Shown here piece by piece: positions 555-47,955 of a stretch of 64,000 nucleotides of DNA. This DNA comes from Verrucomicrobiia bacterium (GTDB lineage Bacteria; Omnitrophota; Omnitrophia; Omnitrophales; Aquincolibacteriaceae): contig DATJFP010000026.1 in assembly GCA_035495615.1 (NCBI GenBank), positions 15,635 to 79,634 on the forward strand. Reading direction: 5' to 3'. The notes below the pieces were generated by a model. That model was not told where the DNA came from, did not search any database, and worked only from the letters and a program-made list of their open reading frames with translations. How positions within the stretch are numbered: the stretch's first letter is position 1; the number at the start of each line of letters is the position of its first letter. The translations under genes were made by a program, and so were the position numbers.

Positions 555-1804
555 TCCGAAGCGTGGACGATTTTCCTTTCCACGGAATCAAAGACGTGGA
601 TGCAGTTGCGGCCCTGACGTTTGGATTCCAGAAGCGCCGCGTCCACCCACTTGATGAGAAAGTCGGTGTCGATCGTCGACTGAGGAATTTCCGTCGTGAC
701 ACCCAGGCTGATCGTAATGTGGAAAGAATCGCGCGACGGCATCACGACGACGAGGTCAGGGTCTTGCTCCACGCTCTGGCGCAGCTGCTCCGCGGCGCGC
801 ACGGCTTCGGGAAGCCTCTGCCCCGGCAGGATGATGCAGAATTCGTCGCCGCCGTAGCGGAAGATGAGATTGCGTTCGGAAAGCGTGTTCTTGACCTTGT
901 GCGCCACCAGCTGGAGGATGCGGTCGCCCTGCTGATGGCCGGCCAGGTCGTTGATGGTCTTGAAGCCGTCCACGTCGAACATGATCAAGGAGAAAACCTG
1001 CAGGCATTCTTTGTCTTTGTAAATCTCGTTGGTCAGCCAGCGGGTCATGTAGCTGCGGTTGTAAGCGCCGGTCAGCGTATCCACGAGCGCGAGCGTCTCC
1101 ACCCTCTCATAGGCGCGCTTCAGGCGGACCTGGTAATCCTGCAAGACGCGGTTTTCCCTCTCGGTCTCGCTTTTCAGCGTGAATTCTTTGAAGCGCATGG
1201 TCTCGTTCATGCGCGACGCGACCATGGAAACGAAGATGAAGAATAGCAGGTAGCTGTTGGACTTGATGAACCAGGCCCATTCCACTTCCTGGCGCCCGAG
1301 CACGATGCCGAGGGGATAGAAAATGTAGAGCGGCACGCATACGCTGGCCGTCGCCGCCGCGCCCCACGGCATCAAAAATCCCATAAGAATAAAAAACAGC
1401 GTGAACGTCACCATCTGGTCGAAGCCCGTCTGGACGTTGAGAATGCGCTGGAGCATGGTGGTGGCGCCGACGAAGATCGCAAGCATGATCGTAAATGCGT
1501 AGCAGCTCTTCCGGAACGGCGGCACGAAGCTGAAGACGCCGAAGCACAGCAGCAGCGCGCTCGAAACGAACTCGATCCGGACGGAAGGATTGATGTTCGG
1601 CGCGGCGTTCGTGTTCCATTCCGTGATGAACGAAATCATGTAAAGCAGGAACAGAAAAACGACGCAAAGACGGAAACGGGGCACGGCAAGCCGTTCGGTT
1701 TCCATCTCGAAGAACGACTTCACTTCGTCGTTGACGGTGGTCTGGGCCTGAAAAAAACGGACCAGATGGGCGGATGTTTTTTTGTTCGCTGCTGCCATGC
1801 GCAC
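533..1804 (-). CDS. membrane-anchored diguanylate cyclase (multi-TM N-terminus + GGDEF domain)
   Basis: 423 aa ORF. Hydrophobic N-terminal half, C-terminal RYGGDEF motif with upstream DVDGFKTINDLAGH. Confidence 0.85.
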   Translation of the reverse strand: MRMAAANKKTSAHLVRFFQAQTTVNDEVKSFFEMETERLAVPRFRLCVVFLFLLYMISFITEWNTNAAPNINPSVRIEFVSSALLLCFGVFSFVPPFRKSCYAFTIMLAIFVGATTMLQRILNVQTGFDQMVTFTLFFILMGFLMPWGAAATASVCVPLYIFYPLGIVLGRQEVEWAWFIKSNSYLLFFIFVSMVASRMNETMRFKEFTLKSETERENRVLQDYQVRLKRAYERVETLALVDTLTGAYNRSYMTRWLTNEIYKDKECLQVFSLIMFDVDGFKTINDLAGHQQGDRILQLVAHKVKNTLSERNLIFRYGGDEFCIILPGQRLPEAVRAAEQLRQSVEQDPDLVVVMPSRDSFHITISLGVTTEIPQSTIDTDFLIKWVDAALLESKRQGRNCIHVFDSVERKIVHASEWLRKTE

Positions 1805-1823
1805 GCTGCGGCAAAGCCGCGGA

Positions 1824-2420
1824 TTATTCTTCCGGTTTGGCCATTTCGGTTTTCATGCTTTTCGTGGTGACGCGGTCCAGGTACGCAAAATCATCGGTGT
1901 CAATGCGCACAAACTCGCCTGTTTTGACGAACTGCGGTACCAGGATTTTGAGGCCGTTCTCGAGCTCCGCCTCTTTGGAGGTTGCGCCGCCGCCCATGGG
2001 AGCAGGCGTGCTCGTCACCTGCAATTCCACGATCTTAGGGAAATCCACGCCGACCGCCTTTCCCTCGACGAAATCCACGCCGATCTCCGAATTCTCTTTG
2101 AGGAAAACCGACTGCTTCCCGACGGCCTTCTCCGGGAGGGAAAATTGCTCGTACGTTTCCATGTTCATGAACACGTACTGGTTCGCGTCTTTGTACGAGT
2201 ACTGCATTTTGACCCGATGCGACTCCAGCGTCTCGATTTTTTCTTCGGCCCGCAGGCTTTTCTCCATCATGTGGCCGTCTTCCAGCGATTTGAGCTTCAT
2301 GTGCATGGTCTTGCCGACCTTGCCGCTGCCTTTCATTTCCTGCGAAATCACCTTGCAGATTTTGCCTTCCAGATTCAGGACATTGCCGACTCTGAGATCC
2401 CCTGCCACCGCCATACGCAC
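1824..2420 (-). CDS. efp: elongation factor P
   Basis: 198 aa. KPGKG-like loop (MKGSGKVGKT) and overall EF-P architecture. Start may be the second Met (2414). Confidence 0.9.
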   Translation of the reverse strand: MRMAVAGDLRVGNVLNLEGKICKVISQEMKGSGKVGKTMHMKLKSLEDGHMMEKSLRAEEKIETLESHRVKMQYSYKDANQYVFMNMETYEQFSLPEKAVGKQSVFLKENSEIGVDFVEGKAVGVDFPKIVELQVTSTPAPMGGGATSKEAELENGLKILVPQFVKTGEFVRIDTDDFAYLDRVTTKSMKTEMAKPEE

Positions 2421-3311: not shown

Positions 3312-3385
3312 TGGAGCGGGATACGGGAATCGAACCCGTGTCCATAGCTTGGGAAGCTATTGTACTACCATTGTACTAATCCCGC
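3312..3385 (-). tRNA. tRNA-Gly (anticodon CCC), CCA encoded
   Basis: Hand-folded: acceptor GCGGGAT/ATCCCGC, anticodon stem ATAGC/GCTAT with loop TTCCCAA, T-arm CGGGTTCGATTCCCG, 3' TCCA. Confidence 0.8.
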
Positions 3386-3455
3386 TTGAACTGCGAAGGC
3401 ATGCTGCGAGCCTATTTTATGCCGGGCGGCAGGAAAATAAAGGCTTTTTTCAGGA

Positions 3456-34871: not shown

Positions 34872-36491
34872 TTATCTCCCTTTCCCGACACTAGCCGGCT
34901 CGTTATAAACGTAATTGCTCTTCGGGCCGGGGCCGTTCTTGCGTGTAGACAGCGGTGTCTCTGAAAACTTGTCCAGCTTCACGCCCACATAACCCGGAAC
35001 GCCCATTTCGGGAATGTCCAAACCTTCGACTTCGTCATCCGGCCGGACACGCAGCCCGATCGTGACATCGATCGCCTTAAGCACAATGTAGCCGATGACG
35101 CCCACGTAAACCACGTTTGCAAGAACGCCGATGCAGGAAGCCACAAACTGACTGGGATCGCCATAAAAAAGTCCGCGAACCGTTCCCGCAACGCCGTTCC
35201 AGCCGTCGCCGTACGTTCCGTCGGCGAAAAGGCCCGTGGCCAGAATGCCCCATGCGCCGTTCACGCCATGAACCGCTACGGCGCCGACGGGATCATCGAT
35301 CTTAAGCACGCCTTCAAAGAAATACACGGCTTCGACGACGAGCAGGCCCGAAACCGCGCCGATGATGCAGGCGTTCACCGAATTCACGAAAGCGCAGGGC
35401 GCCGTGATGGCGACAAGGCCCGCGAGCATACCGTTGCACATCATGCTGGGATCCGGCTTCTTGGTGCGGACTAGCCACATCCAAAGCGTTGCGACGAGCG
35501 CGCCGGTCATGGAGGCCAGCATCGTGTTCGTAGCCACGACGGAAATACGCAGGTCCGTGCCCGCCAGCGTGGAGCCGGGATTAAATCCGAACCATCCGAA
35601 GGCGAGAATGAACGTGCCGACAATGGCCATCGGGATATTATGCCCGGGAATCGCGTTGGGAGTTCCGTCCGCATTGAACTTCCCGATCCTGGGGCCAATG
35701 AGTTTCGCGCCCACGAAAGCCAGGACGCCGCCCGTCAAATGCACCACCGAAGAGCCTGCGAAGTCCACATGCCCATGGCCCAGACCGAAATTCTGGCCGA
35801 GCATGGCCAGCCAGCCGCCGCCCCAGGTCCAGTTGCCATAAATCGGATAGATGATGCTGCCCACGAAAAGGCCGTACACGACAAACGCCGAAAATTTCCA
35901 ACGCTCGGCCATGGATCCCGTAGGAATCGTTGCGGTCGTGTCCATGAACACCATCTGGAAAAGGAACATCGCGAAGATCGCGGCGTCATAGGATTGTCCC
36001 GTCAGGAAAAAGCCTTTCATGCCGAAAAGGCCGAAACTTTTTCCGAAAAGGTGCAGCGTAAACTCATGGTTCAGGACATCCACGCCTCCCAGCGTGCCAA
36101 ACGCTCCGATGCCTCCGAACATTAACGCAAACCCGCACACGTAGAAACCCAGCATGCCCAAGGGATAGATCATGAAGTTCATGGACATCGTATGCGCCGC
36201 GTTTTTTGCGCGGCAAAGCCCGGTTTCCACCATGGCAAAACCCGCTTGCATGAACATCACGAGAAATCCGGTGATTAGCGTCCATACAAAGTTAATCGAG
36301 ACCTTGTTATGGCCCACTGCGGTCGCGAGTTCTTGGAGAGTCGGCGCGCCCGCCGTGGCAGCCGTAACGTCAGCAGCAGTTCCGGTCAGTGCGCCGCTCG
36401 GATCGGCATCCTTGGCGAAAGCCAGGACCGGCACTATCAGCCCGAAAGCGAATAGCCCTAGGAAAAAAAGACTCACTAATTTCTTTTGCAT
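34872..36491 (-). CDS. amtB: ammonium transporter
   Basis: 539 aa Amt/MEP family with cleavable signal peptide and 11 TM core. Immediately upstream of glnK on the same strand. Confidence 0.85.
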   Translation of the reverse strand: MQKKLVSLFFLGLFAFGLIVPVLAFAKDADPSGALTGTAADVTAATAGAPTLQELATAVGHNKVSINFVWTLITGFLVMFMQAGFAMVETGLCRAKNAAHTMSMNFMIYPLGMLGFYVCGFALMFGGIGAFGTLGGVDVLNHEFTLHLFGKSFGLFGMKGFFLTGQSYDAAIFAMFLFQMVFMDTTATIPTGSMAERWKFSAFVVYGLFVGSIIYPIYGNWTWGGGWLAMLGQNFGLGHGHVDFAGSSVVHLTGGVLAFVGAKLIGPRIGKFNADGTPNAIPGHNIPMAIVGTFILAFGWFGFNPGSTLAGTDLRISVVATNTMLASMTGALVATLWMWLVRTKKPDPSMMCNGMLAGLVAITAPCAFVNSVNACIIGAVSGLLVVEAVYFFEGVLKIDDPVGAVAVHGVNGAWGILATGLFADGTYGDGWNGVAGTVRGLFYGDPSQFVASCIGVLANVVYVGVIGYIVLKAIDVTIGLRVRPDDEVEGLDIPEMGVPGYVGVKLDKFSETPLSTRKNGPGPKSNYVYNEPASVGKGR

Positions 36492-36683
36492 TTCGTTGGC
36501 TCCTTCTGTTTGCGAGACAAATCTGTGAATTTGACGAGGTCTTAATCAAGGTTCATGCCATCGACTTTTTTATTGATGCCATATTGATATCAATGCTTGA
36601 AACTTTCTTTTTAGAAGCAATGCTTTTATGTCACGAAAATCGGGCGGGCTTACAAAAATGAAGACAAACACAAAATTGACTGC

Positions 36684-37412
36684 TTAGGCGGGGACGGAAA
36701 TGGACGGAGGATCAATACGAAGACGATATCCCACGGCGGGCTCCGTGAGAATATAAATAGGACGCGCCGGGTCGGGCTCGAGTTTCTTGCGCAGGTTATA
36801 AATAACGACACGCAAAAGATGGTCCATCCGATGGACACTCTGATCATTATTCCAAACTTGTTTGTAGAGCTGCTCCGTTCTGACGATTTTACCCGCGCTC
36901 AAAACCAGGGCCTTCAGCACATCGTATTCCGTCGGCGTGAGATGCTGCGTGCGGTCCCCGACTTTGACGATACGCTGCTCGCCATCGAAAACAAGTTCGC
37001 CGGTCTTGAAAATCGGAGTTCCGCCTTTCGGCAGCCAGCGGCGCATGAGCGCTCGAACGCGGGCTAGAAACTCCGAAGGGCTGAAGGGCTTGGTGACATA
37101 GTCGTCGGCGCCTGCGTCAAGCGCCGCCACTTTATCCGCTTCGTCTCCGCGGACCGAGAGAATCATGATGGGTGTAGCCGCGCGCTGGCGTATCTCTCTG
37201 GCCACCTCGACTCCGCTGATATCGGGCAGTTTCAAATCCAGAATAATCGCATCAGGATGCGCTTTTACCGCGGCTTTCAAAGCCGCGCGGCCGTTAGCCG
37301 CTTCAAAGGTGCGGTACCCCTGGGATTGGAGCATTCTTTTGAGAACGCGCCTCAGCGGACGTTCGTCATCCACGATCAAAATACGCACCCCGTCTTTTTT
37401 AGGCCTAAGCAT
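36684..37412 (-). CDS. OmpR-family response regulator, KdpE-like (pair 1)
   Basis: Receiver domain (ILIVDDE...DLKLPD...DYVTKPF) plus winged-helix output (LTPTEYDVL, GYRL). Confidence 0.8.
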   Translation of the reverse strand: MLRPKKDGVRILIVDDERPLRRVLKRMLQSQGYRTFEAANGRAALKAAVKAHPDAIILDLKLPDISGVEVAREIRQRAATPIMILSVRGDEADKVAALDAGADDYVTKPFSPSEFLARVRALMRRWLPKGGTPIFKTGELVFDGEQRIVKVGDRTQHLTPTEYDVLKALVLSAGKIVRTEQLYKQVWNNDQSVHRMDHLLRVVIYNLRKKLEPDPARPIYILTEPAVGYRLRIDPPSISVPA

Positions 37413-38541
37413 GGGGCTTCTCGATGCAAAAAGGCAATTCCACAATCATTTTCGTCCCCTTTTCCGGCAGATTTTCGGCCCAGATTTTTCCTTGGTGCGC
37501 CTCAACAATTCCTTGGCAAATCGAGAGGCCGAGACCTGTACCCGGAATTTTCTGCGTTCGTTCACCGCGGTAGAACTTATCAAAGATACGATGCAATTCC
37601 CGTTCCGGAATGCCCGGGCCCTCGTCAGAAATTTCAATACGGACGCTTTGCATCGAGGTTTTGATCTCGAGCAAAACCAAAGAACCCCTGGGCGAATACT
37701 TCAGGGCATTGTCGATCACATTGACTAAGACTTTCAGCATCAGGTCGTAGTCGACGCAGGCTTCCGGGAGCTCATCCGGAAGAAGGACGCGCACACGATA
37801 TCCTTCCTCCCCCCGGGATAACTGCTGCAATGCCACTCCGATGAGATCGCTTAAGTCGCATGGTTTCCGGGTCAGCTCTAAAATGCCTCCCTCGACCTTG
37901 GTCATGTCCAATAAATTTTCAACGAGCTGACTGAGTCTCCCCGCCTCCGCGTTGGCTGTCGTAATGAGCTGCCGGCGGGAGGATTCATCCAGGTCCATGT
38001 TGTGGTGCATCAGATTCCCCAGGGCCGCAGTGATCGAGGACAACGGCGTTTTTAGATCATGAGAGATCGAGTTCAACAAAGTTGAATACAGTTTCTCCTT
38101 CTCCCGCAAAAGCTCCATCTGCTGAGTTTTCATGAGGCTGCGTCGGAGGCGCGTCGTCAAAGTGCTGATCGTGATTCCTACAATCAAGAATCCGGCCAGG
38201 GTGACGAAATCGTGCTGACTGAATGTGGCGAAGCTGAATTGCGGCGGGATGAAAAGGTAATCAAAAGCCAGCACGCTGGCGATCGAAGAGGCGATTGCGG
38301 GGCCACGGCCCCATTTGAGCGCAATAATTACGACCCCTAAGAGATAAAAAATAATGAGGTCGGTTGTGATCAGAAAGGCTTTGGCATAGGCAATCCAACC
38401 CGCAAGAAAAGCCGCTGCCACCAACATCAGGCTCAGGATATATGGCATGACGCGATCGGTTTTTTTTCCACCCCACTTCATGGTCATGAGAGCCCCTACG
38501 GATCGATAATTGTATCGAACGTCAGGGAAAGAAAATATCAA
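37405..38541 (-). CDS. sensor histidine kinase, KdpD C-terminal type (4-TM + HisKA + HATPase only)
   Basis: TM block LAFDYLFIPPQFSFATFSQHDFVTLAGFLIVG matches the KdpD membrane domain. LLNSISHDLKTPL H-box. No N-terminal KdpD/Usp domain and no GAF linker. Confidence 0.8.
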   Translation of the reverse strand: MIFSFPDVRYNYRSVGALMTMKWGGKKTDRVMPYILSLMLVAAAFLAGWIAYAKAFLITTDLIIFYLLGVVIIALKWGRGPAIASSIASVLAFDYLFIPPQFSFATFSQHDFVTLAGFLIVGITISTLTTRLRRSLMKTQQMELLREKEKLYSTLLNSISHDLKTPLSSITAALGNLMHHNMDLDESSRRQLITTANAEAGRLSQLVENLLDMTKVEGGILELTRKPCDLSDLIGVALQQLSRGEEGYRVRVLLPDELPEACVDYDLMLKVLVNVIDNALKYSPRGSLVLLEIKTSMQSVRIEISDEGPGIPERELHRIFDKFYRGERTQKIPGTGLGLSICQGIVEAHQGKIWAENLPEKGTKMIVELPFCIEKPHA

Positions 38542-38654: not shown

Positions 38655-39728
38655 ATGCAGAGACAAGACTCGCCGATCAAATATCATTTTATCTGGCACG
38701 GTTATGCCCAGAGCCTTCTCATGGTGGTTCTGGTCACGCTTGGCGGGGAACTACTCAAGCGCACGATCGAGCCCATCAACCTTATCATGTTCTATCTTTT
38801 GGCCGTGATCGTCGCGGGCATCCGCTGGGGCCACGGCCCCGCTGTCCTGACTTCCGTTCTGAGCGTGCTTGCCTTTGATTTTTTTCTCATCCCTCCCTAT
38901 CTGACTTTCGGCGTCGAAGATTTCCAGTACGTCTTTACCTTCGCGGGTTTTCTCATTGTAGGTCTGATCACAAGCGAACTGATGACAAAAACAAAGGAGC
39001 AGGCGCGCAAAGCGCGGCAATTGGAACTGCTTCGAGCGACAAAAAAACTGCAGACAGCGCTCCTCAATTCAGTCTCGCACGACTTGCGCACGCCGCTGGC
39101 TTCGATCATCGGATCCATCAGCATGCTCCTGCAAGACGAGCCTTCCCTCGCCGAAGAAACCATAAAGGGGCTGCTCCGGGACGCCTATGGGGAATCGCTG
39201 CGCTTGAATCGCTTGGTCGGGAACCTCCTCGACATGACGCGGCTTGAAGCCGGCGCTCTGAATCTTTCTTTTAAATCCTGCGATTTAAGAGACGTGCTCG
39301 GCGTGGCTTTGCAGGAGCTCGCCGACAAATTGGAGCAGCGCCGAATTAAAACCCAGATCCCTCACGACCTCCCGGAAATCAGCGCGGACTTTTCTTTGAT
39401 CATGAAGGTGCTCGTGAATTTAATCGATAATGCGGCGAAATATTCGTCTGAGGACACACCGATCCGCATTGCCGCCAAAACGCAGGGCGACCGGATTAAA
39501 ATTGAAATCATGGACGAGGGAATTGGAATTGCCCCCAAAGACTTGAAACCTATCTTCGACAAATTTTACCGCGCTTCCCATCCGTCGACGGTCGAGGGTC
39601 TCGGGCTTGGGCTCTCGATAGCGAAAGGAATCGTGGAGGCGCATCATGGCGAAATCTGGGCGGAAAGCGGCGCGGGAAAAGGGACGACATTCGTCGTGCT
39701 TTTGCCTTACTCCAAGGAGACCGCATGA
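38655..39728 (+). CDS. sensor histidine kinase, KdpD C-terminal type (pair 2, paralog of 37405-38541)
   Basis: LAFDFFLIPPYLTFGVEDFQYVFTFAGFLIVG TM block. LLNSVSHDLRTPL H-box. About 50% identical to the divergent paralog. Confidence 0.8.
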   Translation: MQRQDSPIKYHFIWHGYAQSLLMVVLVTLGGELLKRTIEPINLIMFYLLAVIVAGIRWGHGPAVLTSVLSVLAFDFFLIPPYLTFGVEDFQYVFTFAGFLIVGLITSELMTKTKEQARKARQLELLRATKKLQTALLNSVSHDLRTPLASIIGSISMLLQDEPSLAEETIKGLLRDAYGESLRLNRLVGNLLDMTRLEAGALNLSFKSCDLRDVLGVALQELADKLEQRRIKTQIPHDLPEISADFSLIMKVLVNLIDNAAKYSSEDTPIRIAAKTQGDRIKIEIMDEGIGIAPKDLKPIFDKFYRASHPSTVEGLGLGLSIAKGIVEAHHGEIWAESGAGKGTTFVVLLPYSKETA

Positions 39729-40426
39729 AGGAGCAGCACGCCTTGCGCGCGTTGATTGTCGATGACGAGAAGGCCTTGCGCCGTTTTCTCAAGACCGCAC
39801 TGTCGTCCCACGGCTATCAAGTGTTCGAAGCCGGCAACGGCCTAGAGGCCCTCGAAGAATCCGTATCCTGCCATCCCGACGTCATCATCATCGACCTGGG
39901 CCTGCCCGACAAGGACGGCATCGAGGTCACGCGCGAGATCCGCCGGCGCACGAAGACGCCCATCATCATTTTGTCGGTGCGCGACCGCGAAGAGGACAAA
40001 ATCCAGGCGCTCGACGCGGGCGCGGACGACTACCTCACCAAGCCTTTCAGCGCAGGCGAATTGATGGCGCGTCTGCGGGCCGTCATCCGCCGCCTAGTTC
40101 CGCAAAACGAAACCACATTTTTTAAAGCCGGCAAATTAGCGATCGATATCGGCAAGCACACGGTGGAATTAAACGGCCGCGCCCTCCAGCTCTCGCCGAC
40201 CGAATTCGACATCGTTAAAGTGCTGGTCATGAACGCCGGAAAAGTCGTGACTCAAAAGCAGATCTTGAAAGAAGTCTGGAACAAAACCGAAGAAATGGAA
40301 GGGGCTTCCCATCTTCTCCGCGTCACCATCAGCAATCTGCGCAACAAAATCGAGCCCAATCCCGACCGTCCCACCTATCTTCTCACCGAGCCGGGCGTGG
40401 GATACCGCCTTCATACCGAAGATTGA
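39725..40426 (+). CDS. OmpR-family response regulator, KdpE-like (pair 2)
   Basis: ALIVDDEKALRRFL...DLGLPDKDG...DYLTKPF receiver. LSPTEFDIVKVL...GVGYRL winged helix. ATGA overlap with upstream kinase. Confidence 0.85.
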   Translation: MKEQHALRALIVDDEKALRRFLKTALSSHGYQVFEAGNGLEALEESVSCHPDVIIIDLGLPDKDGIEVTREIRRRTKTPIIILSVRDREEDKIQALDAGADDYLTKPFSAGELMARLRAVIRRLVPQNETTFFKAGKLAIDIGKHTVELNGRALQLSPTEFDIVKVLVMNAGKVVTQKQILKEVWNKTEEMEGASHLLRVTISNLRNKIEPNPDRPTYLLTEPGVGYRLHTED

Positions 40427-40504: not shown

Positions 40505-40514
40505 TTGCATAGAT

Positions 40515-40695
40515 CGAACAAGCCGAATCCGGATGACGGATCGGGGGACCCAGAGAAGGCTCCGGAGCTCGATGCTTCGGGGCGATAAGCAGCTCGAAAC
40601 TTGGTGTTTTTAGCTATCGGGGCGAATCACTGCAAAGTGAAAGGTTTCCACTCGACCTTAGCCCGACAGCTAACCCCGTAGGCGAAACGGAGAGA
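40515..40695 (+). promoter_or_regulatory. c-di-AMP riboswitch (ydaO/kimA class) in leader of ptsN-like/kimA operon
   Basis: GAAUCCGGAUGACGGAUCGGGGGACCCAG ... GGGGCGAAUC ... GUUUCCACUC ... AGCCCGACAGCUAACCCCGUAGGCGAAACGGAGAG. Conserved blocks remembered from the ydaO motif (GAAUC, ACGG..GGGGGACCCA, GGGGxGAAUC, CCCGAAGG-GCAA-like 3' end). Confidence 0.75.
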
Positions 40696-40796
40696 ACTGT
40701 GCACCGCATTTTCGAACCGCGCTTTTCAATCCTTTCCGTTTCCCCTGGTTTCACCGCCGAAGCGTTCCGCGCAGACGGGCTTTCAAGGAGGACGCC

Positions 40797-41381
40797 ATGG
40801 TTTCACTCATCGTGTTAGGAGGAGCAAAAATGCTGTCGTTTCGAAAGCAAAGGCAGGAAACATCATTAAGGCGCGGGCAGGCCGCCGCGAATCAGAGCTT
40901 AGGCCAAGCGGCGTTAAAAATTTCCGACTACCTGACGTCCGAACAGATTTGTTTTTTCCCCGAGGGAACAAACGCGCTCAGGGTATTCTCGGATTTGATA
41001 GGCACTCTCTCGATACCAAACCGGGAGTTCGCTTTGGAAGCCGTTCTTCGCAGGGAACAAGTCGGCGGGACGATCGTGGCTCCGGGAATCGCGCTTCCCC
41101 ATGCTCGGATTGACGGCACGGACCGGTTGCATTCGGCTCTCGCTCTTTGCCCAAGCGGTATCAAGCTCAGCGAAGACGAACCGGCGATCCGCCTGCTCCT
41201 CCTTTTTGTCAGCCCTTTTACCGAACTGAAAAACCACTTACGCTTTCTGGCCGCGGCAGCAGCTTTATTTCAAGACGAAATGCTTTGCGGCGACATGATC
41301 GCGCTGAAGTCGAGCGATGCCATTTTGGAAAAACTAAAACACAAAGAAATGAAAACCCATGCCGAACATTCCACAAAATAA
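40797..41381 (+). CDS. PTS EIIA type-2 protein, EIIA(Ntr)/PtsN-like
   Basis: ALEAVLRREQVGGTIVAPGIALPHARIDG...LLLLFVSPFTELKNHLRFL aligns with E. coli PtsN around the phosphorylatable His (GIAIPHG). AGGAGG RBS 7 nt upstream. Confidence 0.75.
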   Translation: MVSLIVLGGAKMLSFRKQRQETSLRRGQAAANQSLGQAALKISDYLTSEQICFFPEGTNALRVFSDLIGTLSIPNREFALEAVLRREQVGGTIVAPGIALPHARIDGTDRLHSALALCPSGIKLSEDEPAIRLLLLFVSPFTELKNHLRFLAAAAALFQDEMLCGDMIALKSSDAILEKLKHKEMKTHAEHSTK

Positions 41382-43389
41382 GTCGGTCCCTCGAAACGTC
41401 GTCATTGTGACGACCGCCATGCTGAGCTTTATCAGTTTCTGGCGGGCCGCCGCGATCGTGCTTTGCGATATTGCCTCCACGGTTTATTACATCGGCGGCA
41501 TTGCCGAGCATGCCATCGGAAAAGCCGCTCCGTGGTTTATTTTGGGCGTGATGCTCTTTTCCTACACGGTACGCGCCATTTACATCGAGTCTTGCGGCAT
41601 GTTTGTCCGCGGCGGCGTATACCGCGTCGTCAAGGAGGCTATGGGAGGAACGCTCGCCAAACTTTCCGTCTCGGCCCTGATGTTTGACTATGTCTTGACC
41701 GGGCCCATCAGCGCGGTTTCGGCAGGCCAATACATGGTCGGCCTTTTGAACACGACGTTTCCACACTTCGGCTTACCGTGGCATTTTCGCGCTGATATTT
41801 TTTCCGTTTTGTTCGCCGTCGCCGTCACGCTCTATTTCTGGTGGGAAAACGTTAAAGGCATTCCCGAGTCGAGCGACAAAGCCCTCAAAATCATGATCGC
41901 CACGACGATCATGGGCATCACCATGATCATTTGGAGCGTGACGACGCTCCTCGTGCGAGGCATCCACTGGCCCCCTTTCACTCCCGTCTTTAACGAAGAC
42001 TCGCTGGGCTGGCTGTATTCTCTGAAAGACAAGATCAAACCTCTGGGCGTCCTCGGCCTCACCATCGCCTTCGGCCATTCGCTGCTCGCCATGTCCGGCG
42101 AAGAATCCCTTGCCCAGGTCTACCGGGAAATCAAAGCGCCCAAGCTCAAGAATCTCGAAAAAGCAGCCTTCATCGTCTTTCTCTACAGCATGCTGTTGAC
42201 CACGCTGGGAAGTTTTTTCGCGATCATGATCATTCCCGATTCCGTGCGCATGAGCCAATACTCCGACAATCTGATAAGCGGCCTTGCGATGTATTTCGTC
42301 GGCCCGCTCCAACTCAGACTCCTTTATCAAGCCTTCGTGGTCTTCGTCGGATTTTTAATTCTTGCCGGCGCGGTGAATACGTCCATTATCGGGTCGAACG
42401 GGGTCCTCAATCGGCTGGGAGAAGACGGCATCCTGCCCGAGTTCCTCAGAAAGCCTCATGCCCGTTTCGGCACGTCTTCGCGGCTCATCAATATGACAGT
42501 AGGACTTCAACTGCTGACGATCGTACTCTGCCGGGGGAATATTTACGTGCTCGGTGAGGCCTATGCCTTCGGCGTCATCTGGAGCTTCGTATTCAAGGCC
42601 CTGGCCGTCCTCATCCTCCGCTATAAAGACAAGATGCCGCGCGAATGGAAAGTGCCCTTGAATATCAAAATCAAAGGCCTGGAATTCCCGGTCGGAATCG
42701 CCGCTATTTTTCTGATCCTTCTCCTTACCGCCAGCGCGAACCTTGTGACGAAAAAGGTCGCCACAATTTCCGGCTCCCTTTTTGCCCTTGTCTTTTTTGC
42801 CGTATTTGTGGCTTCGGAAAAGATCAACAAGCGGAAGCATCATGCCCTTCATGGCCAGCATGACATTCACGCGGGCCACATCGACCGGGTCAATCTGAAT
42901 GAGATCGAAAATCTCAGCCCCGAAAGTTGCGGCTGCACGAAACCCCGAAGGGTCATTGTTGCCGTACGAGGCCCGCACAGCCTCAGCCATCTCGAAAAAA
43001 CGCTCCATCAGATCCATCCGGAAGACACCGATGTCGTGGTGCTGACTTCGAAAGTCGGCAAGGGCTACCAGTTGGAAGGCGATTTGAGCCGTGTCGCGCC
43101 GGAGGAAGAAAAGCTCTTTACCCGCGTGATTGAAGTGGCAGAGAAAGTCGGCCGAACCGTCATCCTGCTGTCGGTCCCGACGAACGATCCTTACTACGTG
43201 ATGGCGCGCATCGCGCACGAGTTAAAAGCGCAGGAACTCGTGGTCGGAAAATCTGAAAAATTTTCCCCCGAAGTTCAGATGGAGGAAATCGCGATTGCCT
43301 GGGGCGCCGTGACGCCGCCGCGCCAGCATGTGCCGCCTCTGATGATTCGGATTCTGTGGGATGGGAAAGAAATGACCGAAATGTTCTAA
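41359..43389 (+). CDS. kimA: KimA-family K+ importer (APC superfamily) with C-terminal cytoplasmic Usp-like domain
   Basis: 676 aa, 12-TM APC fold. SGEESLAQV region corresponds to KimA SGVEAISN. C-terminal RRVIVAVRGPHSLSHLEK...VVVLTS...VILLSVP resembles the B. subtilis KimA cytoplasmic domain. Preceded by ydaO-class riboswitch. Confidence 0.75.
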   Translation: MPNIPQNKSVPRNVVIVTTAMLSFISFWRAAAIVLCDIASTVYYIGGIAEHAIGKAAPWFILGVMLFSYTVRAIYIESCGMFVRGGVYRVVKEAMGGTLAKLSVSALMFDYVLTGPISAVSAGQYMVGLLNTTFPHFGLPWHFRADIFSVLFAVAVTLYFWWENVKGIPESSDKALKIMIATTIMGITMIIWSVTTLLVRGIHWPPFTPVFNEDSLGWLYSLKDKIKPLGVLGLTIAFGHSLLAMSGEESLAQVYREIKAPKLKNLEKAAFIVFLYSMLLTTLGSFFAIMIIPDSVRMSQYSDNLISGLAMYFVGPLQLRLLYQAFVVFVGFLILAGAVNTSIIGSNGVLNRLGEDGILPEFLRKPHARFGTSSRLINMTVGLQLLTIVLCRGNIYVLGEAYAFGVIWSFVFKALAVLILRYKDKMPREWKVPLNIKIKGLEFPVGIAAIFLILLLTASANLVTKKVATISGSLFALVFFAVFVASEKINKRKHHALHGQHDIHAGHIDRVNLNEIENLSPESCGCTKPRRVIVAVRGPHSLSHLEKTLHQIHPEDTDVVVLTSKVGKGYQLEGDLSRVAPEEEKLFTRVIEVAEKVGRTVILLSVPTNDPYYVMARIAHELKAQELVVGKSEKFSPEVQMEEIAIAWGAVTPPRQHVPPLMIRILWDGKEMTEMF

Positions 43390-43400
43390 GCGAGAAAAGG

Positions 43401-43685
43401 ATGGATTTCTTTTTAAAATTCACTCTCATCTCTTATGCCTCGATTTTCTTTTTCACACTGGGATTGCGCCTGGCTGTTTCCAGCGAATTGGACTTGCGGG
43501 TCATCCAACTTTTTCTTATTTTTGCCGCTGTCTCGCTTCCTTTGTCTCTGACCTTCAAATCCCAGCCTTTGTATAGCCGTTTTCTGATGTCCCTGACCTG
43601 CACCTCCCTCATTCTGACCGGTTTCCGTTTCGGCAGGAAAATAAAGCGTTTGGGTGAAGAAAATCCCCTCAAACGTCATTTTTGA
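43401..43685 (+). CDS. small 3-TM membrane protein ending ...GFRFGRKIKRLG (paralog of 45622-45891)
   Basis: 94 aa. RBS GAAAAGG. Shares FFLxFxLxSYAxIFFFxxGL...FKSxPL...GFRFGRKI with the ORF following the second kimA. Confidence 0.5.
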   Translation: MDFFLKFTLISYASIFFFTLGLRLAVSSELDLRVIQLFLIFAAVSLPLSLTFKSQPLYSRFLMSLTCTSLILTGFRFGRKIKRLGEENPLKRHF

Positions 43686-43736
43686 CTCGTTTTTGACTCG
43701 TCCAATGCCCTCTCCCCGAGTATTTTGTCACGATTA

Positions 43737-43880
43737 ACGACAAGCCGAATCCCGACAGGGATCGGGGGACCCGATAAAGCGGCTCTCAAAGTTTTGAGCC
43801 ATGGGCGAATCCGCCGGAGCGCGGAGAGGTTTCCACTCAACCTCAGCCCGTCAGCTAACCCCGAAGGCGCAACGGAGAGG
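43737..43880 (+). promoter_or_regulatory. c-di-AMP riboswitch (ydaO/kimA class), second copy, abutting the kimA2 start codon
   Basis: ACAAGCCGAAUCCCGACAGGGAUCGGGGGACCCGA ... GGGCGAAUCC ... GUUUCCACUC ... AGCCCGUCAGCUAACCCCGAAGGCGCAACGGAGAGG. Co-linear with the first copy. The conserved 3' AACGGAGAGG contains the RBS for ATG at 43885. Confidence 0.75.
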
Positions 43881-43884
43881 TGTT

Positions 43885-45612
43885 ATGTCTTTGATGCTCA
43901 AAAAAGTCGATCGCCCGCGCGAATTGAAGTGGTATCAGGCGGGCGCCATGCTGTACGGCGATTGGGGAACCAGCAAGGCCTATGTGCTTGGCATCGCCTT
44001 CGCTCTTGCCGGCCACGCTTCCTGGTTTTTCCTCGGCCTCATGTCCGCGCTTACGGCCCTCATCGGCGTCTGCTACATGGTGATTTGCCGCGTGTATCCG
44101 GACGGCGGCGGCGTTTATTCTTCCGTGAAGCATCGCCACCGCCTGCTCGCGGTGATCGGCGCGTTTCTTTTGATCGCGGATTACGTGATTACCGCGTCGC
44201 TCAGCACGCTCGACGCCTTCCATTATTTCAACGCGCCGCATCCGGAAATCTGGGCCGTGGCCACGATCCTCGTCATCGGCGCCATCAACTGGCTCGGGCC
44301 CAGCAAATCCAGCACGATCGCGTCTTACATCGCCGTCGTGGCCTCGGCGGGCGCCCTGATTCTTTTCGCGGCAACCGTTCCCTCGCTCTCCCATGTGCAT
44401 CTGACCTGGCCCGGCAGCGACTGGCCCAAAAATTGGACGGTTTTCGTCGGCATCGTGCTCGCGCTTTCCGGCGTGGAAGCCATTGCCAACATGACGGGCA
44501 TCATGGAAGAGCCCGTCGAAAAAACATCCAAGCGCGCGATCTGGCCCGTGCTCCTGGAAGTTTCCGTGCTGACCTTTCTGCTTGGCATTGCCATGAATGC
44601 CATCCCGAACCTCAAAGACCATACCGAAGACATGCTCCGCGTCCTGGCCACGCATTATATCGGGCCTTGGTACGGCGCCTTCATCTCGCTCGCGTTCGGC
44701 TTCCTGCTGCTTTCGGCGACCAACACCGCCATCGGCGACCTGGTCAGCATCCAGTTTTTGATGGCCAAAGACCGCGAGCTGCCCGAAGCTTTCTCAAAGC
44801 TAAACCGCTTTGGCATGCCGGGCCTTGCGCTGATCATCGCCACGGCGATCCCCGCGGGCGTTTTAATCTTCGAGCACGATCTGGTTAAACTCGCGGCACT
44901 CTATGCCATCGGCGTGATCGGTGCCATCACGATCAATCTCGGCGCCTGCGCGACCAACTTCAAGATCCCGCTGAGCCGGAAGGAACGCATCCTCCTCGGC
45001 ATCGGCGCGGTCATCCTTTTTTTTATTGAATTGACGATCGCCTTCGAAAAGCACCACGCCCTGATTTTCGCGCTCACGGTCCTCGCGGTCGGATTGTCGC
45101 TGCGCTATGCCGCCAAGACGTTCCTGCCGATTCCGGTGCCGGCGCTTGCGCCCACGGTCAATCTGCTCACCGTTTCCGAAGCCAGAGAAATAGCGCCGCT
45201 TTACAAAAGCTCGTCGCTTGTCGCGATCCGCAGCTTTAATCCCGCGGTGCTCGACGAAGCCGCGCTGCGCGTGAAGGCCCTCAAGGAAAACGCGGTTTAT
45301 TTGAGCTACATCGAGGAAACTCCCACCGTGGCGGAATTGCCGGATGAAATCGAACCGTCCTCTCACTCCCTCGAAGTCCTGGGAGAGGCTCAGAAGGCCA
45401 TGGAGGAACGCGGGGTCACCGGCATCCCGGTCTGGCAGATCGGCGATGATCCCGGCCGCATGATCGCCAAAGCCGCGGCCGAACTTGGAGTCAATACGGT
45501 CATGATCGGGACGACGAGGCGCAGCGCGCTGGTCAACCTTCTCCGCGGCGACGTGCTGCGAACGCTCGCCCGTCATTTACCCAGAGAATGCCGCCTGGTG
45601 ATCAGCGGCTAG
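43885..45612 (+). CDS. kimA: KimA-family K+ importer, second paralog
   Basis: CYMVICRVYPDGGGVYSSVKH matches KimA YRQIIYAYPQGGGAYIVSKE. LALSGVEAIANMTG matches SGVEAISN. C-terminal Usp-like domain. Start moved from ORF-track 43801 to 43885 to clear the riboswitch. Confidence 0.8.
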   Translation: MSLMLKKVDRPRELKWYQAGAMLYGDWGTSKAYVLGIAFALAGHASWFFLGLMSALTALIGVCYMVICRVYPDGGGVYSSVKHRHRLLAVIGAFLLIADYVITASLSTLDAFHYFNAPHPEIWAVATILVIGAINWLGPSKSSTIASYIAVVASAGALILFAATVPSLSHVHLTWPGSDWPKNWTVFVGIVLALSGVEAIANMTGIMEEPVEKTSKRAIWPVLLEVSVLTFLLGIAMNAIPNLKDHTEDMLRVLATHYIGPWYGAFISLAFGFLLLSATNTAIGDLVSIQFLMAKDRELPEAFSKLNRFGMPGLALIIATAIPAGVLIFEHDLVKLAALYAIGVIGAITINLGACATNFKIPLSRKERILLGIGAVILFFIELTIAFEKHHALIFALTVLAVGLSLRYAAKTFLPIPVPALAPTVNLLTVSEAREIAPLYKSSSLVAIRSFNPAVLDEAALRVKALKENAVYLSYIEETPTVAELPDEIEPSSHSLEVLGEAQKAMEERGVTGIPVWQIGDDPGRMIAKAAAELGVNTVMIGTTRRSALVNLLRGDVLRTLARHLPRECRLVISG

Positions 45613-45621
45613 AGGTTCGAA

Positions 45622-45891
45622 ATGCCGGTTTCGAATATCGCTTTCTTCCTGAGGTTTGGGCTCACCTCGTATGCCGCCATTTTCTTCTTTGCCGCGGGGC
45701 TCGGGTTTGCCTTGTCTTATGCCGGCAGCCTGAAACACACGGATTTCGGCCTGCTTTTTTTCTTCATGGCCGCGGCCCTGTGTTTCAGTTTCAAGTCCGA
45801 ACCCCTTCAAGGCCGCCTGATCATCGCCGCCATCTGGGCCTCGATCGTTTGGGCCGGCTTCCGCTTCGGCCGGAAGATCCGGATGCGCTGA
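45622..45891 (+). CDS. small 3-TM membrane protein ending ...GFRFGRKIRMR (paralog of 43401-43685)
   Basis: 89 aa. RBS AGAGG. Conserved blocks shared with 43401-43685. Confidence 0.5.
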   Translation: MPVSNIAFFLRFGLTSYAAIFFFAAGLGFALSYAGSLKHTDFGLLFFFMAAALCFSFKSEPLQGRLIIAAIWASIVWAGFRFGRKIRMR

Positions 45892-46045: not shown

Positions 46046-47068
46046 ATGTCGACAAACGATCAGCCCTCAACTGCGCCCGCGGGCAAAAAACCCAAGATCA
46101 ACGCCCGCTTTCTCAGCCTGGGCAATTTGCTTCTGCCCGTCCTTCTGGTCATCATCGCGCTTCACTGGGGAGACGGCCGGGTTTTTGCCGAGCTGCTGCT
46201 GAAGATCAAGCCCCAATGGCTTGTCCTGGCCGCCCTCTGCCAGATCGGGACTTACCTCTGCGTAACCATGATCTGGCGCACGGTGTTCCGCCGCTGCGGC
46301 ATCCCCATCCGCTCTTATCAATTGTTTGCGCTCAGCATTGCCAAGCTTTTCTTCGACCAGACCCTGCCTTCCTTCGGCGTGAGCGGCAGCGTCATGGCCA
46401 TGCGCGGGTTCATCCGCCGGCAAAGCTCCAAGGGCGCGGCCGCCGCGGCGGTCATCATCAATACCACGAGCCGCTACCTGCCCTACGTGCTGCTGTTCAC
46501 GGCGGCCCTGGCCATCCTCTGGAAACACCACATGCTCAGCAAGCCGCTGGAATACACGGCGGCTCTTTTCATCGCAGTCATCGTCATGCTCATGGCCGCG
46601 ATCCCCGCGCTCGTGCAGCTGGCCATCAATCATAAAACACCGTCCTGGGTGCACCGGTTTGGCTGGCTCGAGAAGGTCCTGAAAACCTTGCGCGAGATCC
46701 CGGTCGAGATCATTGGGGACTGGCGCCTGTGGCTTGTGGCGTGCCTTGCGAACGCCTGCATTTTTCTGCTGGATTCGACGACGCTTTGGAGTCTGTTGTC
46801 GTCCCTCGGCATCGGGACCCATCCCTGGTTCCACGCCTACGTCAGCGACATGGTGTCGTCCGTCGTGACCGACCTGGCCATGGTGCCGGGAAAAATCGGG
46901 GTTTTCGAAGGAAGCTCCGTCACCATGCTGCGGCTCTTCAAATATCCGCTCGAAGAAGCCGTGGCCGCGACGCTCCTTTTCCGCGGCTTCACCTACTGGC
47001 TGCCCATGATCCCGGGATTTATTATCACCCGCCGCGAGCTCGGACAGCACCCTCACGAATCCCGCTGA
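46046..47068 (+). CDS. flippase-like domain membrane protein (LPG_synthase_TM / UPF0104 family), second stand-alone copy
   Basis: 340 aa polytopic. Same family pattern as 9727-10731 and the MprF N-terminal domain. Confidence 0.65.
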   Translation: MSTNDQPSTAPAGKKPKINARFLSLGNLLLPVLLVIIALHWGDGRVFAELLLKIKPQWLVLAALCQIGTYLCVTMIWRTVFRRCGIPIRSYQLFALSIAKLFFDQTLPSFGVSGSVMAMRGFIRRQSSKGAAAAAVIINTTSRYLPYVLLFTAALAILWKHHMLSKPLEYTAALFIAVIVMLMAAIPALVQLAINHKTPSWVHRFGWLEKVLKTLREIPVEIIGDWRLWLVACLANACIFLLDSTTLWSLLSSLGIGTHPWFHAYVSDMVSSVVTDLAMVPGKIGVFEGSSVTMLRLFKYPLEEAVAATLLFRGFTYWLPMIPGFIITRRELGQHPHESR

Positions 47069-47181: not shown

Positions 47182-47955
47182 TTACGCCCGGGAAGCTTGC
47201 TTGCGCGGGAAAGGGAAGCGTTCGGAAATCAGATTCAGGCAAAGCCACAGGCCGCAGCCCGTGACGGTCAGGATCAGGTACCATTTGCCGTAGATTCCGT
47301 CACTCGAAAAAGGCTCGGTCGCGGCATGGAGCACTTCGCTGTTGGGAAGAACGCCGCCTTCGGCGAATTCATGGAAGGATTGCACTGCGATCTGGACCGT
47401 GAAAAGCAGCAGGTAAACGGCCGTGACCTGGAAAAAATGCTTGAGGTTGATAAGATAGCCGAACTGCTGCCAGAGATAGGCGACCAGGCCCGCCGCGGCA
47501 ACGCCAAGCAGGACACCGGTCACGATCTGCGCGTCCTGCACCTGGAGCAGGAGAAGGGCGGTTTCCATCCCCTCGCGGCTGATCATGAGAAGCGTAAACA
47601 GGAACACGCCCCAAAGCGAGCCTTTCAGGGTCGGTGCCGCGGAAGCTTTGGAAAGCTGGCTTTCCATTTCCTGCTTCATGGTCGGGCCGACCTTCATCAT
47701 GTGCACGACGAGCGTGGCCACAAGTACGGCGGTGATCAGCCCGAAGGCCCCTTCGATCACAGGCTGATGCTGCCCTTCAGTGATCCACAGAAAATAGCCG
47801 AGCAGGCCGCTCACGACAATGGAGCCGACGATGCCGGCGACAAGCGCGGGAATCAAATGGCCCTGGCAGGTTTTACGCAAATAGGCGGCGGTGATTGCGA
47901 CCATAAGAAAGGCTTCGACGCCTTCCCGTAAAACAATGAAAAATGCCTGGAGCAT
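47182..47955 (-). CDS. FTR1/EfeU-family high-affinity iron permease
   Basis: Two REGxE motifs (REGVEA in TM1, REGMET in TM4) diagnostic of FTR1. Confidence 0.8.
   Translation of the reverse strand: MLQAFFIVLREGVEAFLMVAITAAYLRKTCQGHLIPALVAGIVGSIVVSGLLGYFLWITEGQHQPVIEGAFGLITAVLVATLVVHMMKVGPTMKQEMESQLSKASAAPTLKGSLWGVFLFTLLMISREGMETALLLLQVQDAQIVTGVLLGVAAAGLVAYLWQQFGYLINLKHFFQVTAVYLLLFTVQIAVQSFHEFAEGGVLPNSEVLHAATEPFSSDGIYGKWYLILTVTGCGLWLCLNLISERFPFPRKQASRA

Follow-up and report, generated by a model that had tools for sequence, protein, structure and literature searches.

A rare family of small membrane proteins encoded in potassium-uptake gene clusters of an Omnitrophota-type lineage

In the 64,000-nucleotide (nt) window (the whole stretch of DNA that was analyzed), two small open reading frames (ORFs), sp1 and sp2, each follow the gene of a candidate K+ importer. 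Conservation at the protein level indicates that both are real, translated genes and that they belong to an undescribed, rare, and narrowly distributed family. The home of the family is an Omnitrophota-type lineage in groundwater and sediment metagenomes. The small family tracks K+-uptake clusters with KdpD/E-type regulators, not KimA as such. It is likely that sp1 and sp2 encode real proteins whose function is linked to K+ uptake or homeostasis. Probably, they are helpers or regulators of K+ uptake peculiar to this lineage and not subunits dedicated to KimA. As to their mode of action, we tentatively propose that each is co-translated with the adjacent transporter and acts as its accessory modulator.

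Two small genes behind two candidate K+ importers

The features of the locus are listed in Table 1. The ATG of sp1 lies 12 nt past the last base of the upstream TAA (43387-43389; 11 nt between), and that of sp2 lies 10 nt past the last base of the upstream TAG (45610-45612; 9 nt between). A purine-rich, Shine-Dalgarno-like GAGAAAAGG was found just 5' of sp1, and a Shine-Dalgarno-like GAGG overlaps or just follows the stop codon upstream of sp2. In BLASTP, sp1 and sp2 aligned without gaps, with 35 of 82 residues identical (43%, E 2e-21), and the blocks FFL.F.L.SYA.IFFF..GL, FKS.PL, and C-terminal GFRFGRKI are common to both. AlphaFold2, run with a 37-sequence alignment, predicted helices at residues 2-26, 34-51, and 57-86 (mean pLDDT 72). 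Because the C-terminal tail is strongly basic, the positive-inside rule suggests that the N-terminus is outside and the C-terminus inside; the third helix would then lead into the near-invariant tail motif at the cytoplasmic face. Thus, the two ORFs with their distances of 12 and 10 nt to the upstream stop codons, the ribosome-binding sites, the shared blocks, and, at the level of a model, the three transmembrane (TM) helices are as the earlier note had described them.

Table 1. Features of the K+-uptake locus and its flanks in the window
Feature	Position	Strand	Evidence and remarks
Amt ammonium transporter	34872-36491	-	Divergent from the K+ cluster
OmpR-type regulator	36684-37445	-	Divergent from the K+ cluster
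Second truncated DUF4118-HisKA-HATPase kinase	37405-38541	-	Divergent from the K+ cluster
Truncated KdpD-type sensor kinase	38655-39728	+	Pfam DUF4118 2e-30, HisKA 4e-15, HATPase_c 2e-28
KdpE/OmpR-type response regulator	39725-40426	+	Pfam Response_reg 1e-31, Trans_reg_C 1e-21; 4-nt overlap with the kinase gene
c-di-AMP riboswitch aptamer 1	40511-40699	+	Rfam RF00379, 75.1 bits, E 2e-16, full model 1-134
PtsN-like PTS EIIA	40797-41381	+	Pfam PTS_EIIA_2 5e-13; NCBIfam PtsN weak (42 bits, below cut-off)
KimA-like putative K+ importer, 676 aa	41359-43389	+	APC/LeuT-fold membrane domain and C-terminal alpha/beta domain; Pfam AA_permease_2 4e-50
sp1	43401-43685	+	94-aa predicted three-helix membrane protein; from ATG to end of stop codon
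c-di-AMP riboswitch aptamer 2	43733-43884	+	Rfam RF00379, 76.3 bits, E 9e-17, full model
Second candidate K+ importer, 575 aa	43885-45612	+	Divergent APC/KUP-like membrane domain and C-terminal Usp domain; Pfam Usp 2e-08
sp2	45622-45891	+	89-aa paralogue of sp1; from ATG to end of stop codon
LPG_synthase_TM-family gene	46046-47068
FTR1-type iron permease	47182-47955	-	3' of the K+ cluster

The gene upstream of sp1 encodes a 676-aa protein. In its AlphaFold2 model (pLDDT 70.9), approximately 12 long helices precede a beta-alpha-beta domain (residues 530-675). With this model, the top three PDB matches in Foldseek were the Bacillus subtilis KimA structures 8b71, 8b70, and 6s3k (E 2e-15 to 3e-14, 665-673 columns, 16-18% identity), which ranked above cation-chloride cotransporters and amino-acid APC carriers. 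KimA combines a LeuT-fold 12-TM domain with a C-terminal domain made of a five-stranded parallel sheet and four flanking helices (PMC6994465). The predicted 676-aa protein conforms to this KimA/KUP architecture, with a LeuT-fold 12-TM domain and a C-terminal alpha/beta domain. Residues D37 and Y44, seven residues apart, and S246-G-E-E249 were invariant in 25 homologues; judged by motif position only, they sit at KimA D36, Y43, and T230 to E233. In KimA, TM1 holds the K+-binding Asp D36 and the gate Tyr Y43, and TM6 holds the proton-coupling Glu E233. At the level of sequence, neither phmmer searches with both transporters nor a 25-sequence profile of the 676-aa protein returned KimA or another APC protein from the PDB sequences, and a BLASTP comparison with Escherichia coli Kup gave E 0.68. 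Since no solved structure was matched by sequence, the label KimA-like is one of fold and architecture, at which level we assign it with fair confidence.

The transporter upstream of sp2 differs. Its 575 residues include the motifs YGDWGTS..Y in TM1 (YGD26WGTSKAY33) and SGVE, and a marginal N-terminal BLASTP match to E. coli Kup (E 0.04) includes YGD.GTS. The protein most likely starts at ATG 43885 and not at 43801, because the mechanically called 603-aa ORF from 43801 overlaps riboswitch 2 (43801-43884) and because the N-terminus of the orthologue in locus L018, which starts MLLKKVERPRELKW, agrees with the later start. The two transporters are only 24% identical (E 6e-14), so the two units are no simple duplication. 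The best reading for both transporters is K+ import, based on the c-di-AMP riboswitches, the KdpD/KdpE-type regulators, and the KimA-like fold. The earlier note had named both upstream genes kimA and had spoken of duplicated units. The first name can be kept for the 676-aa protein at the level of fold, whereas for the 575-aa protein a KimA-like nature is only plausible; the notion of duplicated units does not fit 24% identity between the transporters next to 43% between the small proteins. The link of the small ORFs to K+ importers was borne out by KimA as the best structural match of the 676-aa neighbor and by the c-di-AMP riboswitches on both units.

These two riboswitches, absent from the earlier note, score well above the RF00379 gathering score of 38. 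Aptamer 1 leads unit 1, which comprises the PtsN-like EIIA, the KimA-like transporter, and sp1. Aptamer 2 begins 48 nt past the sp1 stop codon and ends one base before ATG 43885; its 3' end, ACGGAGAGG, holds a likely Shine-Dalgarno sequence for this ATG, with GGAGAGG at 43874-43880. Since the 3' end of the aptamer doubles as a probable ribosome-binding site, the arrangement suggests that unit 2 is under translational control by riboswitch 2. RF00379 aptamers were also detected in loci L001, L007, L011, and L012 of the small family, and were not found in L002, L013, L003, and L014. In Bacillus, a c-di-AMP riboswitch is located upstream of kimA and ktrAB, and in Bacillus thuringiensis upstream of kdp (PMC10284832, PMC6488665).

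The sensor kinase encoded 5' of unit 1 contains the DUF4118 membrane domain without the N-terminal or Usp part of KdpD. A truncated kinase gene also precedes the transporter in L001, L002, L007, and L013. The EIIA gene is preceded by the ribosome-binding site AAGGAGGA, and its 3' end overlaps the start of the KimA-like gene by 23 nt. EIIA and transporter genes are likewise paired in L011, L012, L022, L023, L025, L034, and L036, and this recurrent pairing suggests EIIA-Ntr-type control of the KimA-like transporter family. No kdpABC genes were found within the 64-kb window. The minus-strand genes at 34872-38541 and the K+ cluster together form a pair of KdpD-like systems, one by NH4+ uptake and one by K+ uptake. 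An FTR1-type permease gene is also located past the K+ cluster in L007 (8559-9587, with hemP), pointing to some wider synteny.

A rare family in K+-uptake clusters

A word-indexed search of 5.8 billion proteins returned 12 relatives of sp1 with 48-60% identity, and a profile of 21 members detected 36 homologue clusters among 5.8 billion proteins. HMMER, run exhaustively against 1.84 billion representatives at 50% identity, matched only 9 proteins at E<=0.001, including a 1137-aa repeat protein that is likely spurious. The genome-contig scan yielded one genome match for the small gene, an Omnitrophota MAG (L002). Members are 72-100 aa long; F17, G21, G74, R76, and G78 are invariant in the sp1-family alignment, and the C-terminal consensus is G-[FY]-R-F-G-[RK]-K. 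The protein P0032 is an sp2 orthologue (64% identical). P0039 from L018 is 45% identical to sp2, whereas the transporters upstream of the two are 87% identical; the small protein thus evolves much faster than its neighbor.

It is very improbable that sp1 and sp2 are untranslated, be it as chance ORFs or as a 3' UTR kept for RNA-level reasons. Such a reading would be compatible with the fact that the family was seen in metagenome assemblies only. It conflicts with open frames of 79-100 codons that retain 33-60% protein identity across the 36 clusters, with dN/dS values of 0.20 and 0.39 in the two closest orthologue pairs, and with an amino-acid motif that stays invariant in wider comparisons, in which synonymous sites are saturated. 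The Shine-Dalgarno-like sequences before both ORFs also speak against it, as does the lack of an Rfam family match at the coordinates of sp1 and sp2.

The 36 clusters and the dN/dS values of 0.2-0.4 agree with the earlier claim that the ORFs are real and conserved, and their tight coupling to the neighboring genes was likewise borne out. Homologues exist outside this genome, whereas a lack of such conservation would, according to that note, have spoken against the claim. The family, which it had not recognized, gave nothing above cut-off in Pfam-A (sub-threshold noise: DUF2070, 12.7 bits; DUF3272, 15.5 bits) and no match in NCBIfam. Fold searches with the small protein returned nothing specific, and no paper describing the family was found in the literature. 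One 81-aa protein of the representative library, P0020, is composite: approximately 52 residues at its start match the N-terminus of DUF4118 from a KdpD-type kinase, and approximately 29 at its end match the small family's helix 3 and GFRFGRK tail. Either a deletion or a chimeric assembly would account for P0020. The idea it prompted, that the small protein derives from the KdpD DUF4118 domain, was rejected (hhalign probability 0.65%).

Genomic context was readable for 15 instances of the small gene, including sp1 and sp2, and 14 of them adjoin K+-uptake genes. In six loci (sp1 in the window, L001, L002, L007, L013, and L100), the small gene directly follows a KimA-like gene with a gap of 1-20 nt; the KimA-like genes in these loci are 73-79% identical to that of the window. 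Two instances, sp2 and the one in L018, follow a Usp-type transporter (gaps of 9 and 13 nt). In L003, L014, and L015, the small gene is part of a kdp operon, between kdpC and kdpD (gap of 3-7 nt), and in L016 it follows kdpA of a permuted kdpB-C-A operon (gap of 35 nt) and stands directly before kdpD. Loci L011 and L012 contain kdpABCDE, the small gene (132 nt past kdpE), a response regulator, a c-di-AMP riboswitch, EIIA, and a KimA-like gene, in this order. Here the small gene stands in place of the truncated kinase gene. It lies outside the riboswitch unit, 1.7 kb 5' of the transporter gene, with the co-oriented response regulator 4-34 nt 3' of it. The remaining instance (L017, near a contig end) follows zinc ABC transporter genes, without a K+ gene in view. 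The gap to the stop codon of the upstream transporter is 1-20 nt in eight loci.

Three side observations concern these clusters. The kdp genes of L016 (2532-6965, plus strand) are in the order kdpB-kdpC-kdpA instead of A-B-C. A second family of small membrane proteins (70-73 aa, no Pfam match) is encoded in L003 (8282-8494), L015 (7301-7522), and L074 (9838-10053); in L003 and L015, its ORF is located between the small gene and kdpD, and in L074 near a KimA-like gene from another lineage. Directly 3' of the small gene in L100, a 134-aa protein (1571-1975, plus strand) has a weak match to Ion_trans_2, a K+ channel pore (21.7 bits, with a cut-off of 22.5).

The transporter family was also viewed from its own side. 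The family of KimA-like proteins is very large: in Omnitrophota, Elusimicrobia, and Deltaproteobacteria, no fewer than 8000 matches had identities of 55-79%. The closest named homologues are from Omnitrophota. Eighty metagenomic loci from other lineages were sampled, with KimA-like members 49-72% identical. When all frames were considered, the 80 loci contained no small-protein homologue; several of them keep a kinase, regulator, or EIIA module. For 69 KimA-like genes, downstream sequence of 330 nt or more was available, and a hydrophobic small ORF directly followed just one of them (L021); this 73-aa ORF (2140-2361, plus strand), 1 nt after the stop codon of a 70%-identical KimA-like gene, is unrelated. 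Fusions that could serve as a Rosetta stone, with a hydrophobic C-terminal extension on a KimA-like gene elsewhere, were ruled out: the extensions are soluble.

Since none of the 80 loci with the same transporter family carries the small gene, the small protein is a lineage-specific addition and not a core subunit. Together with the homologues in kdp operons, this absence from the sampled KimA-like loci of other lineages also shows that it is not an obligate KimA subunit. The earlier note had proposed a KimA accessory subunit and had suggested that co-occurrence with kimA be checked in other genomes. A KimA subunit is not supported by the kdp operons of L003, L014, L015, and L016, which have the small gene and no KimA-like gene within 7-8 kb, nor by L011 and L012, where the small gene stands apart from the transporter and ahead of a response regulator, nor by the 80 sampled loci of other lineages.

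In a neighbor-joining (NJ) tree, the members linked to KimA-like genes, including those of L011 and L012, formed one clade (80% bootstrap), and sp2 belonged to a subclade of its own (74% bootstrap); the kdp-linked members fell outside both. The prediction that members outside the KimA-like-linked clade are kdp-linked failed, as P0036 follows a KimA-like gene in L100.

Candidate partners of the small protein

The small gene can be described as a component of K+-uptake clusters and not of one transporter: it is the last cistron after KimA-like, KUP-like/Usp, or kdp structural genes, beside KdpD/KdpE-type regulators. In the role that we tentatively favor, each paralogue would be made together with its upstream transporter by translational coupling across the gaps of 1-20 nt. 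It would then bind this transporter in the membrane, itself a tentative step, and act as a nonessential, lineage-specific stabilizer or activity modulator. Its basic-aromatic tail may lie at the inner leaflet, beside the cytoplasmic nucleotide-binding-type domain of the transporter. A transporter-specific partner is favored by the very short gaps in eight loci and by the fact that one genome retains two divergent paralogues, one behind each of two different transporters. In addition, orthologues of sp2 in particular are encoded behind transporters of the same type, and the NJ groups (80% and 74% bootstrap) point in the same direction.

Several observations weigh against a transporter partner. 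A dedicated subunit would not usually be found beside three uptake systems of unrelated structure. The agreement between clade and gene context is imperfect (P0036 in L100), the KimA-like family elsewhere does without the small protein (0 of 80 loci), the small protein changes much faster than its neighbor, and L017 has no K+ gene in view. Finally, the small gene of L011 and L012 is 1.7 kb from the transporter and outside the riboswitch unit, and that of L016 still stands just before kdpD despite the order kdpB-C-A.

The arrangements in L011, L012, and L016 fit a role with a KdpD-type kinase or regulator. By analogy to MgrB or SafA with PhoQ, the small protein might be a membrane modulator or connector that binds the DUF4118 TM domain of a KdpD-type kinase and feeds information on transporter expression back to KdpD/KdpE signaling; its linkage to different transporters would then merely reflect membership in the KdpE regulon. 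This is the main alternative to a transporter partner, though we regard it as unlikely. In its favor, a DUF4118 kinase and an OmpR-type regulator are encoded in every locus long enough to show them (window, L001, L002, L007, L013, L003, L014-L016, L011, and L012). In the kdp loci, including L016, the small gene is followed directly by kdpD or by the 70-aa gene and then kdpD, and the small gene of L011 and L012 replaces that of the truncated kinase, outside the riboswitch unit and with the response regulator 4-34 nt later. Two divergent paralogues with separate orthologous lineages are, however, hard to explain by one target, an objection tempered by the two DUF4118 kinases of the window. Moreover, modules of kinase, regulator, and KimA-like transporter exist without the small protein in L038, L039, L042, L043, L061, L067, and L074. 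Homology of the small protein could be detected neither to DUF4118 (hhalign probability 0.65%) nor to small proteins known to modulate kinases (no Pfam match).

Somewhat less probable still is a passenger of a K+-limitation or osmotic-stress regulon, which would have its own membrane function and bind neither transporters nor the kinase. It could, for example, control an oligomeric leak of ions or solutes, or bind lipids via the basic-aromatic tail. The linkage to three unrelated uptake systems, the fast evolution outside a few motif positions, and L017 with its lack of a K+ gene in view would all be accounted for, and the clusters do harbor other small membrane genes (the 70-73-aa family in L003, L015, and L074 and the Ion_trans_2-like 134-aa protein in L100). 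Such a passenger is harder to reconcile with the very short gaps to the preceding transporter, which recur in eight loci, and with the arrangement of one paralogue per transporter in the window, which points to a specific partner.

Ranked by probability, a partner of the adjacent transporter comes first, though tentatively, a modulator of the kinase second, as an unlikely role, and an independent function third, as a slightly more doubtful one. An improbable further role would be that of a common adaptor subunit of KimA-like, KUP/Usp-like, and KdpFABC systems, in which the invariant G[FY]RFG[RK]K motif next to the membrane links all three to the same cytoplasmic regulator or signal. This common element could be the Usp/HUP-type nucleotide-binding domains, which occur in both APC transporters and in full-length KdpD, or else c-di-AMP or the PtsN-like EIIA. 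If true, K+ uptake would be coordinated at an additional, new level.

Small membrane proteins acting as modulators of transporters or sensor kinases tend to be overlooked, and only a few of them are understood. A sharply conserved motif encoded behind three K+-uptake systems in an uncultivated phylum provides a defined, testable candidate. The locus also shows c-di-AMP riboswitches and KdpDE-type and PtsN-type control genes with KimA-like importers outside Firmicutes. The impact is limited by the rarity of the family (36 clusters among 5.8 billion proteins) and by the fact that the same transporters work without the small protein elsewhere.

Comparison with known systems

Although the family itself is new, proteins of this general kind have been described before; none of the nearest analogues is homologous. 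Like the small protein, KdpF is small, hydrophobic, and encoded in a K+-uptake operon; this 29-aa subunit of KdpFABC is dispensable for catalysis and probably stabilizes the complex. KdpF has one TM helix and its gene is upstream of kdpA, whereas the sp1/sp2 family has three predicted helices and its genes in kdp operons follow kdpC or kdpA. There is no sequence similarity between the two, and the sp1/sp2 family also occurs beside non-Kdp transporters. Locus L003 contains its own kdpF-like 30-aa ORF (3344-3436) besides the new gene after kdpC. Identity with KdpF is thus ruled out by length, helix number, position, and this separate ORF. Cyanobacterial kdp operons contain KdpG, a small hydrophobic ORF of unknown role between kdpB and kdpC. 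Compared by description only, KdpG and the sp1/sp2 family are both small, hydrophobic, and encoded in kdp operons, at different positions. Detectable homology to a widespread cyanobacterial family is not expected, since the HMMER scan matched only 9 proteins in 1.84 billion representatives.

MgrB and SafA, which act on PhoQ, and MzrA, which acts on EnvZ, are likewise small proteins of the inner membrane, with genes in or close to the regulon of a two-component system. They have a single TM helix and no homology to the three-helix sp1/sp2 family, for which an interaction with a kinase is a hypothesis. The likeness to the MgrB/SafA type consists in gene co-localization with DUF4118 kinases only.

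Small subunits of transporters include DUF485/YjcH with ActP, DUF4212 with sodium:solute symporters, and 4F2hc with SLC7 APC transporters. What sp1 and sp2 have in common with these is a gene coupled tightly to that of a LeuT-fold/APC carrier. To our knowledge, no such accessory subunit has been described for KimA or KUP transporters. Unlike a core subunit, the sp1 family is missing from most members of the same transporter family, and the structure of KimA is a homodimer without partner proteins (PMC6994465).

The closest known counterpart of unit 1 as a whole is the kimA (ydaO) gene of B. subtilis, in which a c-di-AMP riboswitch is followed by a K+/H+ symporter with a LeuT fold and a C-terminal five-stranded alpha/beta domain (PMC6994465, PMC10284832). 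Unit 1 resembles it in the riboswitch and in the KimA-like fold, with only 16-18% identity between the transporters. The locus in the window goes beyond the B. subtilis arrangement in that it also encodes a PtsN-like EIIA, a two-component system of the KdpD/E-like type, and the small membrane protein.
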